From an uncultured Pseudomonadota bacterium (GTDB taxonomy: Bacteria; Pseudomonadota; Alphaproteobacteria; Rs-D84), in assembly GCA_902801125.1 (NCBI GenBank), contig CADCGT010000002.1:225157-289156 (forward strand): DNA of 64,000 nt, written 5' to 3'. A program made the translations under genes and the position numbers. Positions 22,442 to 30,056 of this stretch are shown here, piece after piece. Below the pieces are notes generated by a model. It saw nothing but the letters and a program-made list of their open reading frames with translations. It made no database searches and was not told where the DNA came from. Every line of letters starts with the position of its first letter. Positions within the stretch are counted from its first letter, which is position 1.

Positions 22442-25126
22442 TTACATTGGAATCTCATCGCACTTTTCGATTGGTTCGGACGTAGTACAATCCATCGTAT
22501 TCCGACGTCCAATACCCAAAACCCCATGCCTGTATGTAGTACTGCAATCTTTGGTAATTGTCAAACTGCACAAACGGCAAACACGCGTATCGCGATTAAA
22601 TGTTGTCCACATCTCTCGCGTGCCGCCGTCAAATTCGGCCTTGTAGTGGTCTGATTCCAACATTCCGATCGTCTTGACCGTCATATCCGCAATGGCCACC
22701 GTCGGATTAAATGAAAGATTCGCTGCAAGCTTTCCGCCCTCTTTTACAAATTCCCCACCAATACCTGCAAGTGTACCAGCCAACGTACCTACCGCACCAC
22801 CATCATTGCCACCGGCGGCATTACCACTTTTGTGTTCAACGGTTGCGGTGCCCCCGACTTTCTTCATTGTTGTATGTGTTCCACCCGCCGCCAAAGAGGC
22901 ATTTGAAATTCCAGCGAATTCTAACACTATTGCCCCAGGCGGCAACAAAGTAACATTCAAATCCGCCGCAGATATTCCTTGGGCTGAACCATCCGCAAAC
23001 GGCAATTTATTACACATTAAGTTTGCTATATCCGTACTTGCACCATCCATGGCCTTGGCCAGATATTCGTTATATTTTGCCTGGTAATTATTCTGGGCCT
23101 GGCGCAGGGCGGCAATTGCAATCTGCATTTTAACACCGTCCAACAAGTGCGGGAACCGCGCCGTTGTCATTGTCCGTTCATGCACACGGTCAATTTGTGT
23201 CAAATCACGTCCCGTTATACAATATTGAATTTGTTGATCTTTGGCGATCATATCAATCACACGGTTGATATCACCTTGAATATTTTTCAATTCATAAATC
23301 ACAGAATCTGCAATTGTTTCATATTTCTTTGTCACAAGATAATTCTTATTTAAATATTCCACATAATCAGAAATATCTATCACGCCCGCGTCATTATCGC
23401 TTTCTTGCGAACTGTCCCCAACTTTGTTTGTTCCCGAACCGACCTTGATTTGTCCGAACGAAATCATACCCGACAATCTATGAACCGCCCCATCCTTTTG
23501 ATAGCGCAGCGACCCCGTGCCGATTGTATCGTCACTTGCAAATTTATTACAGTCTGTGGTTGAACCGCAAATTTCGGTCATTTTCTTTTCAACCAATTTT
23601 TGACAATTTTCCAACGCTTTGTTGTCTATGTTCAAATACAGTCCCATAATAATTGAATCAACATCATCCATTGAAAAATCTTTGCCATTCTGCTTGTATC
23701 CCTTGCACGCGACCAATTTATCCAACGGGCACATTTCACGAATGAAATCATAATCCATACCGATGCAATTCATAAAGTCCGGCCCACAGCGATTTTCATC
23801 CGTAAAGCATTCTTTAACCTCGGTCGTGCAAGAATCCACGCGCATTGCCAACAATTTATCTTTGACATAACCCCAAAAAGCATCTTTGCCCGCCATACGT
23901 TCACACGGTTCAAGTTGATTTTTACAGAAATCACGCGCCATTTCTGGTCGGGACAAACACGCATCCATTGTCGCAACACCTTTGCCCGCAATATCATCCG
24001 CACAGGCCCGATGCAAACATTGGGTTATATTGGTCAAACACGATTGACGCATATCCGATTCCGCATTCAATTCGGCAAGTTTTAATGTCGGTGCAATTTC
24101 GCGCAAGAACGCCGTCCAAACCGTATCACGCACCGCCATACATTGATCCAACACGCGTTCACAAATTGGACGCTTGGCCTCCAGACGTTCCAACACAGAC
24201 GACGAAATATTATACCGCACGGTTGTTTTAACCTTGGCTCCGGTGTAATCGTCCGCAACCGTTTTATTCTGCATATTTTCACTTGCCACCGTTGATACAC
24301 AGTTCGCCCAATCGCCGCCACACGCATCGTCACCCATCATACAGTTCTTTAATTGAACCATACATTCGCCCTGGTTATATTTATTGGCAGAATCAAAACT
24401 TTCTTTTAACGCAGTGCGAACATCGCGTTCGGCATTATTCATTGCGGTTTGCGCGGCGGTGCGCTGTTGTTTTATGCTGTTTGCGAAACCGCGACAATCG
24501 GATTCAATTTGCCGTTGATATGTCTGGCGCAAGAATTTCATATCTTTATCGCAACCTTGACCAACCTGGACCCGGCATGTGGCATCGGCGGCATTGAACA
24601 GCGCGACACCGGTTTTATTCATAATATTGTCTTCGTCAATATCTTCTTCATCGTCATCATCGAATTTAACTTCGAACATTTTCAACAAATCCGCGCGGTT
24701 ATTTTTCGAAACCTTTGGCGTGGCATTGGAATTTGTATTATATACAACATTACCCTTGTCATCATAGGTGCGCCCGCCACCAAATACAATATCGACATTG
24801 GACCCAAGTTTTATTTTTTCAACCTCGACGGTGCTGACGCGTTCGGCCTCGGCCAGCATTTCATTTATTTCTTTTAATTCGGCCTCGTATTTTGCGTTGT
24901 CATTACTGCATGCGCAACTGCCCCCGTTTACATTATCAGAAATACAGAATTGGTCCATGCACCCATAATACGCATCATAGCATTCCGCGGAATAAATACC
25001 CGTTGCCGCAACACGTGCGCGAACATTTGTTCCGTTTTGAATTGCAGACTGTTTTTTTGCGACCGCACCGAACGCGACACACGGAAACGCAACCATTAAT
25101 GCAATAAATGCAATTTTTTTCATCAT
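22442..25126 (-). CDS. Large secreted cysteine-rich protein, family member 1 (unknown function)
   Basis: Signal peptide MMKKIAFIALMVAFPCVAFGA. Family motif ECYDAYYGCMDQFCISDNVNGGSCACSN plus many further C-x6-C-x4-C modules. Its start codon overlaps the upstream stop (ATGA at 25126-25123). Confidence 0.85.
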   Translation of the reverse strand: MMKKIAFIALMVAFPCVAFGAVAKKQSAIQNGTNVRARVAATGIYSAECYDAYYGCMDQFCISDNVNGGSCACSNDNAKYEAELKEINEMLAEAERVSTVEVEKIKLGSNVDIVFGGGRTYDDKGNVVYNTNSNATPKVSKNNRADLLKMFEVKFDDDDEEDIDEDNIMNKTGVALFNAADATCRVQVGQGCDKDMKFLRQTYQRQIESDCRGFANSIKQQRTAAQTAMNNAERDVRTALKESFDSANKYNQGECMVQLKNCMMGDDACGGDWANCVSTVASENMQNKTVADDYTGAKVKTTVRYNISSSVLERLEAKRPICERVLDQCMAVRDTVWTAFLREIAPTLKLAELNAESDMRQSCLTNITQCLHRACADDIAGKGVATMDACLSRPEMARDFCKNQLEPCERMAGKDAFWGYVKDKLLAMRVDSCTTEVKECFTDENRCGPDFMNCIGMDYDFIREMCPLDKLVACKGYKQNGKDFSMDDVDSIIMGLYLNIDNKALENCQKLVEKKMTEICGSTTDCNKFASDDTIGTGSLRYQKDGAVHRLSGMISFGQIKVGSGTNKVGDSSQESDNDAGVIDISDYVEYLNKNYLVTKKYETIADSVIYELKNIQGDINRVIDMIAKDQQIQYCITGRDLTQIDRVHERTMTTARFPHLLDGVKMQIAIAALRQAQNNYQAKYNEYLAKAMDGASTDIANLMCNKLPFADGSAQGISAADLNVTLLPPGAIVLEFAGISNASLAAGGTHTTMKKVGGTATVEHKSGNAAGGNDGGAVGTLAGTLAGIGGEFVKEGGKLAANLSFNPTVAIADMTVKTIGMLESDHYKAEFDGGTREMWTTFNRDTRVCRLCSLTITKDCSTTYRHGVLGIGRRNTMDCTTSEPIEKCDEIPM

Positions 25127-30056: not shown

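Follow-up and report, generated by a model that had tools for sequence, protein, structure and literature searches.

Three long genes lie side by side in a stretch of 64,000 nucleotides (nt) from an uncultured alphaproteobacterium of the Rs-D84 lineage (contig CADCGT010000002.1), wrapped around infA, the gene for initiation factor IF-1. I will refer to the whole stretch as the window and to the three genes as A, B and C. Their products carry signal peptides, are rich in cysteine and are related to one another, and they raise two questions: what kind of protein is this, and what might it do for the cell? The first can be answered with little doubt: A, B and C almost certainly make up a real family of exported, cysteine-rich proteins that has not been described before. 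The second calls for more caution, and the readings that bear on it are weighed as the evidence for each of them appears.

The Paralogues A, B and C

22442..25126, minus strand: gene A, 894 amino acids (aa); signal peptide, 26-aa spacer, core, second helical region, Gly-rich segment, C-terminal domain
25123..27318, minus strand: gene B, 731 aa; signal peptide, 65-aa Ala/Pro/Thr/Glu spacer, core, C-terminal Cys module with a glycine-zipper insert
27774..30056, plus strand: gene C, 760 aa; signal peptide, 106-aa spacer, core, distinct C-terminal domain ending ...WGLCREP

The initial annotation of this DNA, made from the sequence alone, proposed three open reading frames (ORFs) here, and the ORF list places A, B and C at just these positions. 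A gene called on a 137-kb contig from a rumen metagenome encodes exactly the 894-aa product of A. The signal peptides attributed to the three proteins can be read from their sequences: a basic n-region is followed in each by a hydrophobic core and a cleavage site of the AxA type, and all are of the Sec rather than the Tat type. The predicted sites, placed by eye, are ...VAFG/AVAKK in A, ...VAFA/ATRDG in B and ...ASSA/AVRGT in C, where the slash marks the cut.

That the three are paralogues, as had been supposed, is confirmed by pairwise BLASTP. A and B match with E=2e-45 (27% identity over ~530 aa), A and C with E=7e-23 over 330 aa, and B and C with E=3e-12. The single signature said to be common to them, E-C-x2-AY-x2-CMDxFC-x9-C-x-CS, was counted by means of the pattern C-x2-x-[YFW]-x2-C-x-D-x-[FYW]-C in the six-frame translation of the window, and there are exactly three copies, one in each gene:

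24902..24985, minus strand: N-terminal signature of A, ECYDAYYGCMDQFCISDNVNGGSCACSN; C-x6-C-x4-C-x9-C-x-C, invariant in orthologues
26977..27060, minus strand: N-terminal signature of B, ECRAAYRECMDDFCMLDESEGGRCSCSN
28155..28238, plus strand: N-terminal signature of C, ECQDAYFACMDQFCALANDKYRRCICSN

Of 84 related loci, 59 likewise contain three copies, and the signature is present in nearly every homologue considered (119/120 for A, 118/120 for B, 114/120 for C).

I propose to treat these proteins as a superfamily, labelled Rs-D84 Cys-rich helical rod proteins, and to define its signature in the form C-x6-C-x-D-x-[FYW]-C-x9-C-x-C[ST]. A, B and C all possess the defining features: a signal peptide, the N-terminal signature, a collinear core of ~480 aa and 21-29 aligned cysteines.

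The Cysteine Framework

Cysteine makes up 4.1% of A (37 residues), 5.2% of B (38) and 3.8% of C (29), as compared to 1.9% for all ORFs in the window that reach 200 aa. Conservation of these residues, among paralogues and among orthologues, had been chosen beforehand as one of two points on which the proposed family should stand or fall, and they are conserved in both comparisons. In the superfamily alignment, each of the 29 cysteines in the core of A is matched by a cysteine in B, and 21 of the 29 are matched in C. In alignments of 42-44 orthologues, 35 cysteines of A are invariant and one more is conserved in at least 90% of the sequences, while 28 of the 29 in C are invariant and the remaining one is conserved in at least 90%. 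Conservation of this degree is far beyond chance. A cysteine in the signal-peptide region of A (Cys16) is not conserved among orthologues; the mature protein has 36 cysteines and B has 38, both even numbers.

One element of the initial description did not survive. The triad C-x6-C-x4-C was said to recur many times per protein, and the exact triad occurs only twice in A, three times in B and once in C. What recurs is the simpler heptad spacing, C-x6-C. A 23-aa module built on it, C-x6-C-x6-CG-x-[DN]-[FWY]-x2-C, is present in two copies, at A255 and A433 (hhalign E=2.8e-5).

If cysteines form a bond with one another, they might be expected to disappear together. C363 and C408 are jointly lost in 4 sequences and C375 and C390 in 28, only 1/28 of which lies outside the C-type lineage. 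These joint losses lend modest support to disulfide pairing, with these two pairs reasonably supported.

The Helical Core

23537..24997, minus strand: core of A (residues 44-530), predicted by AlphaFold2 (AF2) to be an all-alpha rod, with 29 cysteines
25807..27072, minus strand: core of B (residues 83-504), all 29 of whose cysteines align with cysteines of A

The core of C comprises residues 124-646 and has 21 cysteines in common with A. An AF2 model of full-length A, made from a shallow alignment of 44 sequences, was poor (predicted local distance difference test score, pLDDT, 62; predicted template-modelling score, pTM, 0.39); its Foldseek matches were meaningless, and it was set aside. For this reason the core of A was modelled separately, on an alignment of 86 diverse sequences. 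The resulting model (pLDDT 85.5, pTM 0.60) is wholly alpha-helical, with helices of up to 58 aa.

The initial annotation did not recognize the family, and this was borne out by every library consulted. Scans with Pfam and NCBIfam of A, B, C and two neighboring genes described below (D and E) gave only noise at E<=1, and the PHROGs scan of the same five proteins gave nothing meaningful. No sequence in the PDB matched the family profiles of A and C at E<=1. A Pfam scan of 50 diverse members of the superfamily for known domains fused to them gave only matches to Gly-zipper and DUF7631 below threshold. Foldseek found no match to the core of A below E 0.6 in BFVD and nothing significant in the PDB, where the best match was to the alpha-actinin rod (6sl3). 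The likeness to spectrin and alpha-actinin lies in elongated bundles of long antiparallel helices, but spectrin repeats are cytoplasmic and have no disulfides, and the superposition is not significant (E 0.61, template-modelling score 0.13). The lack of any Foldseek match suggests that the core, confidently modelled as all-alpha, is a helical rod of apparently new topology and hence, apparently, a new fold.

Many of the core cysteines are seven residues apart on one helix, and two C-x6-C-x6-C-x6-C quartets (A255-276 and A433-454) span helix-loop-helix elements. Pairs of cysteines on one face of a helix, as in these quartets, could staple it to an antiparallel neighbor, in the manner of twin-CX9C (CHCH) proteins. 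The likeness is one of mechanism alone: the cysteines are spaced CX6C throughout rather than CX9C, the domain has ~480 aa and 29 cysteines rather than the four of the CHCH mini-domain, the pairing is a prediction here, and no Pfam CHCH family matches.

A quite different use of the cysteines would be to bind metal, or to shuttle electrons or thiols in the periplasm. It is suggested by the signature, which has an odd number of cysteines (five) in a compact arrangement, C-x6-C-x4-C-x9-C-x-C, that is nearly invariant in all three paralogue families. Most of what has been described so far points the other way, however: the signal peptides are of the Sec and not the Tat type, the total number of cysteines is even in A and in B, specific pairs are lost jointly, the CXXC clusters, rich in His or Cys, that typify metal sites are absent, and the core is confidently modelled as a helical bundle without a cofactor. 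I consider a metal- or redox-active role very improbable.

Spacers and C-Terminal Regions

Outside the core the three proteins have less in common. A basic spacer of Ala, Thr and Arg had been ascribed to all of them, and the description is correct for C, where the 106-aa spacer has a net charge of +13 (the C family has a median of 113 aa, net +13). It is not correct for A (26 aa, +3) or for B (65 aa, net 0), and the median spacer charge in the B family is -4.

27834..28154, plus strand: polybasic low-complexity spacer of C (residues 21-127), Arg/Thr/Ala with repeated [AST]R[AVS][AGST] motifs

Related motifs (ARAA, ARSA, ARAG) recur in spacers of the superfamily between the signal peptide and the signature, ARAA alone 135 times in 134 spacers.

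Beyond its core, A has a second helical region (~586-706) and a Gly-rich low-complexity segment (~750-825), and it ends in a small domain, predicted to be Cys-bonded and of beta structure, with the terminus ...CDEIPM. The A and B families share this C-terminal module, in the general form C-x2-C-x5-7-C ... loop ... C-x5-8-C-[DE]-D-I-x-M-COOH, and the family consensus for its end is C-x-DI-x-M. The loop differs between them: A has a short loop, G-[FV]-LGIG, and B a hydrophobic, glycine-zipper-like segment of 42 aa. The tail of C is unlike the A/B module and ends ...WG-x-C; C also has a single Cys-rich repeat.

22445..22588, minus strand: C-terminal module of A, C-x2-C-x7-C ... GVLGIG loop ... 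C-x8-C-DEIPM-COOH, with beta strands predicted by AF2
25210..25335, minus strand: glycine-zipper-like segment of B (residues 662-703), KYGAGLASTGASAGVLAGGWGALIGAAGGALIGGVGGAMSGG, a candidate membrane-inserting hairpin
29664..29768, plus strand: single Cys-rich repeat of C (residues 631-665), CNEGYFLDNDKCYRCPDGWTCPAGSTAPRPGAGSC

The ends of A and B were considered as possible beta-signals for the outer membrane. This idea was rejected because they are polar and terminate in Met (by comparison, an autotransporter encoded in the window ends in Phe); the predicted strands in the C-terminal domain of A are polar as well. Nor do A, B or C look like type V autotransporters, since none matches PF03797 and the end of A and B, ...C-x-D-I-x-M, is not aromatic.

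The zipper-like segment of B, in which GxxxG recurs over ~40 aa of hydrophobic sequence, is kept in 120 orthologues of B. NCBI has named a few orthologues of B 'glycine zipper family protein'; almost all homologues of A, B and C are listed as 'hypothetical'. In its richness in GxxxG and its length, which would be right for a two-helix membrane hairpin, the segment recalls SlyB/Pcp and the Rickettsia 17-kDa antigen, but B has no lipobox, and the zipper makes up a small insert where a protein of 700 aa comes to its end. The signal peptides of both A and B lack a lipobox cysteine, their sites being of the AxA type (AFG/A and AFA/A, respectively).

The Cys-rich unit of C, GN-x-C-x2-CP-x-G-x2-C-x-GG...P...C, forms tandem arrays of several copies in distant C-type proteins of the superfamily, such as P0367. 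By eye it is similar to the CXXC repeats of Giardia VSP-like proteins and to GCC2_GCC3/ephrin-receptor-like repeats, and the likeness to these eukaryotic surface proteins is one of motif only; the unit has no Pfam match.

Gene D and the Organization of the Cluster

30101..30814, plus strand: gene D, 237 aa, predicted to be secreted; the likely true start is a conserved Met at 30113

The conserved unit is larger than the initial annotation made it, for gene D lies just outside the region it covered. The predicted cleavage site of D is ...GAFA/AVDWW, and the 9 cysteines of its mature part are invariant across 44 orthologues; it has no match in Pfam or NCBIfam. D adjoins C directly downstream in 40/52 loci, and where C has relocated D has gone with it (L016, L020, L021). 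B is immediately upstream of A in 69/70 loci. The most frequent order, found in 38 loci, is D<-C<-infA<- followed by ->B->A, in which infA stands between two conserved pairs of genes, B->A and C->D. The mature products of C and D have odd numbers of cysteines (29 and 9), all conserved, so the two proteins may share one intermolecular disulfide, of which parity gives only a hint.

27441..27689, plus strand: infA (IF-1), PF01176 E=1.7e-22; conserved neighbor between the gene pairs
27713..27752, plus strand: intrinsic terminator of infA, a hairpin and T-run (fold -23.4 kcal/mol, z = -3.5), overlapping the promoter-like element of C
27345..27373, minus strand: promoter-like element of the B-A operon, TTGCGA-N17-TGATAAAAT
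27730..27759, plus strand: promoter-like element of the C-D operon, TTGCGG-N18-TGCTAACCT, ending 15 nt before the start codon of C

The third gene had been described as divergent, with infA and its own promoter and terminator in between. infA does lie between the pairs, and a promoter-like site precedes it (27384-27412), but it shares the plus strand with C and D, and the point of divergence is between B and infA. infA is divergent from B in most of 80 analysed loci. Its placement looks like conserved synteny, and no evidence was found of a functional tie to the cluster. The orthologous spacers between infA and C all contain a run of five or more T's, with a hairpin after infA in those displayed.

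An element of the form TTGCGa-N17-TGaTAAAAT precedes B in 55/69 loci, and one of the form TTGCGG-N18-TGCTAnCmT precedes C in 34/57. The elements of B and C have an identical -35 (TTGCG) and an extended -10. It had seemed possible that C is expressed by read-through of the infA terminator, since C begins 21 nt past the T-run, an idea dropped because of the promoter-like element conserved across loci in the infA-C spacer.

The overlap ATGA between B and A (25126-25123), taken in the initial annotation for translational coupling, is real. It is not universal: most orthologues have a short gap instead. The overlap arises because B of this genome carries a 12-aa tail (...DVSGVDGGCRGADL; 25126-25161, minus strand) that extends it past the usual end, ...CEDINM, and adds one cysteine.

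Three other observations concern the cluster and its neighbors. The apparent variation in the length of C between loci L003/L004 and L002 is attributed to gene calling, as an ORF scan and tblastn find a homologue of C over the whole query in all three. A gene for a Cys-rich protein of 1045 aa, found between C and infA in L002, L008 and L010, was considered as a fourth paralogue and dismissed, there being no match to A, B or C (E>4); the version in L002 (4273-7410, 30 cysteines) is related, with 35% identity, to a 743-aa Listeria-Bacteroides-repeat protein of the window (47174-49405, minus strand). ORF E (30826-31518, minus strand; 230 aa) has neither a signal peptide nor a family match and stands beside D only in closer relatives, about a dozen of 84 loci.

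Distribution and Selection

Homologues of A number more than 1285, and those of B and C run to hundreds each. They come from metagenome-assembled genomes labelled Alphaproteobacteria, Rickettsiales or 'Ca. Enterousia', and the closest are from 'Ca. Enterousia'. A scan of one genome per species in GTDB found relatives of A in 311 species; the best 80 of these 311 genomes come from rumen, faeces and the guts of termites and humans, and nearly all are labelled Alphaproteobacteria. A search with the core profile yields 893 clusters (at 50% identity) with E<=1e-3 and 477 with E<=1e-30. Among the best 150 of the 893, most match nearly the full profile; assigned by their top BLAST match, 106 go with A, 32 with C and 12 with B. 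A scan of metagenomes with the core profile gave only orthologues of A at 50% identity or more, with no further genomic context. The complete D-C-infA-B-A cluster is also present in two GTDB bins labelled Bacteroides fragilis (L042) and Muribaculaceae (L077), which are probably mislabelled or contaminated.

The superfamily is so far restricted, in the genomes sampled, to uncultured gut Alphaproteobacteria with reduced genomes, of the Rs-D84 / 'Ca. Enterousia' type. Enterousia belongs to the order Rs-D84, and its genomes are mostly <1 Mb (PMC12306168). The order is missing most biosynthetic pathways and standard transporters, dependence on partner cells has been proposed for it, and with 'Ca. 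Enterousia' it is widespread in the guts of ruminants, horses, chickens, termites and humans (PMC12306168). Since Rs-D84 is also present in termites free of flagellates, it is not simply an endosymbiont of protists (PMC11257099).

Genes A, B, C and D are all under purifying selection. The ratio of nonsynonymous to synonymous substitution rates (dN/dS), calculated against four relatives, is 0.10-0.23 for A-D and 0.02-0.11 for MscS, TspO and infA, values that are rough because dS is near saturation. The amino-acid identity of A, B and C follows that of PpiD, a periplasmic chaperone, of the same loci. Compared with the close relative L005 (over 20670-31545 of the window), the block E-D-C-infA-B-A has a nucleotide identity of 76-80%, as against 92-93% for MscS and TspO next to it. 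The break between A and MscS is sharp and suggests recombination, in the single pair of genomes in which it was seen.

It is here that one must ask whether the proteins could be effectors or toxins, exported to act on neighboring microbes or host cells, for example by insertion of the glycine zipper into target membranes. Glycine zippers occur in pore-forming toxins, and a membrane-damaging effector of a type VII secretion system has reportedly been described in one paper in the context of a glycine zipper. The organism has been proposed to live off partner cells, and the divergence of the cluster in the L005 comparison, far beyond that of MscS and TspO, also speaks for this reading. Toxins, on the other hand, are not easily reconciled with a fixed set of three paralogues and D that keeps its order in ~80 species-level loci under dN/dS of 0.10-0.23, nor with 29 cysteines invariant across paralogues, which would be rare for them. 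Neither an immunity gene nor a secretion system nor a mobile element adjoins the cluster, and only B has a long glycine zipper. A role as effectors is accordingly one I regard as improbable.

The Surroundings of the Cluster

7070..7954, plus strand: DsbA-like thiol:disulfide oxidoreductase, PF01323 E=1.6e-18, PF13462 E=9e-18
37062-40481, minus strand: autotransporter with chlamydial Pmp repeats, 1139 aa; PF02415, PF03797 (E 3e-31); ends ...RYEF
49995-53435, minus strand: ankyrin-repeat protein, 1146 aa

The DsbA-like gene to which the initial annotation drew attention is confirmed by Pfam. It lies ~15 kb from the cluster, and its product is a plausible oxidant for the exported cysteines. The window also encodes a PpiD/SurA-like chaperone and an OmpA-family protein. 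The Pmp-type autotransporter and the ankyrin-repeat protein are typical of host-associated bacteria, and the five together point to a diderm, host-associated organism with an oxidizing periplasm. The view that A, B and C are disulfide-stabilized proteins of the periplasm or surface fits the evidence: it is supported by the Sec signals, the invariant cysteines with even counts in A and B, the paired losses and the presence of DsbA in the window.

Two stretches of the window have a low GC content (34-38% vs ~46%), one at ~40000-44000 and the other at 8985-16175 (minus strand). The latter is a polysaccharide island, encoding a GT10 fucosyltransferase, a TupA-like ATP-grasp protein, an epimerase/dehydratase, GT2 and GT4 glycosyltransferases and a Stealth protein, and may have been acquired horizontally. 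A gene of the choloylglycine (bile-salt) hydrolase family (44583-45725, plus strand; PF02275 E 2e-59) fits a gut habitat.

What Might the Proteins Do?

I tentatively put forward, as a quite possible answer that falls somewhat short of an even chance, that the proteins form a disulfide-locked scaffold or adhesin layer associated with the outer membrane, similar in function to the OmcB and OmcA proteins of chlamydiae and unrelated to them in sequence and fold. After export, DsbA would oxidize the cysteines, and pairs with heptad spacing would staple neighboring antiparallel helices, as in twin-CX9C hairpins, to give rigid rods. The glycine-zipper hairpin, within its small disulfide-bonded module (ending C-[DE]-D-I-x-M), would hold B, and perhaps A, at the outer membrane. 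C and D would be covalently joined by an intermolecular disulfide, and the polybasic Arg/Thr/Ala tail of C and its Cys-rich repeat would form the end that makes contact with polyanionic ligands or partner cells.

The analogy rests on several points. Like OmcB and OmcA, these are conserved, Sec-exported, Cys-rich proteins apparently of the envelope, in a host-dependent diderm with a reduced genome. The N-terminal region of OmcB, which precedes a conserved Cys-rich body, is basic and binds host glycosaminoglycans; the polybasic tail of C offers a parallel to this region. The Pmp-type autotransporter is a second chlamydia-like surface protein in the same window. There are also differences. OmcB is built of beta-rich repeat domains, while the core here is predicted to be all-alpha, and here there are three paralogues as well as D. 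Membership in the OmcB or OmcA families finds no support, since A, B, C, D and 50 members of the superfamily, scanned against Pfam-A, matched no relevant family at E<=1.

Some of the results weigh against an outer-membrane layer. Most of the correlated losses of cysteine reflect one event in the ancestor of the C-type proteins, and this leaves the independent support from that source thin. Cysteine parity is weak evidence for a disulfide between C and D. The Pfam Gly-zipper models (PF05433, PF13488, PF13441) match B types only below the gathering score: Gly-zipper_OmpA matches the C-terminus of B with E 6.2 and that of the orthologue P0323 with E 0.04 (14 bits, as against a cut-off of 25-29), and even the best Gly-zipper match among 50 distant members of the superfamily, with E of 1.7e-4, is still below it. 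Finally, no domain for translocation across the outer membrane and no secretion-system gene is linked to the cluster, which leaves exposure at the surface unsupported and a purely periplasmic location equally compatible with the data.

Suppose, then, that the proteins remain in the periplasm as tethers or spacers. The rods would hang from the outer membrane by their glycine-zipper and C-terminal modules, with nothing exposed at the surface, and their flexible N-terminal tails would reach the peptidoglycan or the inner membrane, setting the width of the periplasm or stiffening the envelope in a lineage that has lost other envelope systems. The only export signals present are of the Sec type, with no outer-membrane translocon found nearby. 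The genes occur almost universally, share synteny with housekeeping genes and are subject to purifying selection, as a core cellular function would lead one to expect. The hairpin predicted in B is of a kind found in outer-membrane lipoproteins such as SlyB, and modelled helices of up to 58 aa would give rods within the range of periplasmic distances. Less easily accommodated are the tandem Cys-rich repeats in relatives of C, for repeats of this kind are typical of extracellular proteins, and the charges of the spacers, which vary widely among A, B and C. Moreover, the window already contains a tether between outer membrane and peptidoglycan in its OmpA-family protein, and the Pfam scans detected no peptidoglycan-binding domain in the proteins. 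A strictly periplasmic tether is conceivable, but I think it rather doubtful.

The outer-membrane layer can also be imagined in a more elaborate form, in which A, B, C and D would build a heteromeric fibre or surface organelle knotted by disulfides. A and B would be its base, anchored in the outer membrane, and C and D its distal binding tip; to attach by it to partner cells or the host mucosa, and to exploit them, would be what defines the lineage. The logic of a rod system of three paralogues is loosely comparable to that of fibrinogen and laminin. I consider such a fibre unlikely.

Significance

Whatever the proteins do, they constitute a new superfamily with, as modelled, a new fold, in an enigmatic, uncultured lineage of gut bacteria. 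About 7.9 kb, close to 1% of a small genome, is devoted to four conserved exported proteins that the sequence databases and structure libraries do not recognize. Independent of function, a family of ~900 clusters with some 14 predicted disulfides bears on the classification of protein structures and on oxidative folding in reduced genomes. Should the proteins form a fibre, they would represent a new class of bacterial attachment apparatus with a new fold. If they are an envelope scaffold or an attachment apparatus of any kind, they would offer the most direct handle on how the lineage lives, and A-D would be ready surface markers by which its cells might be sorted or imaged.

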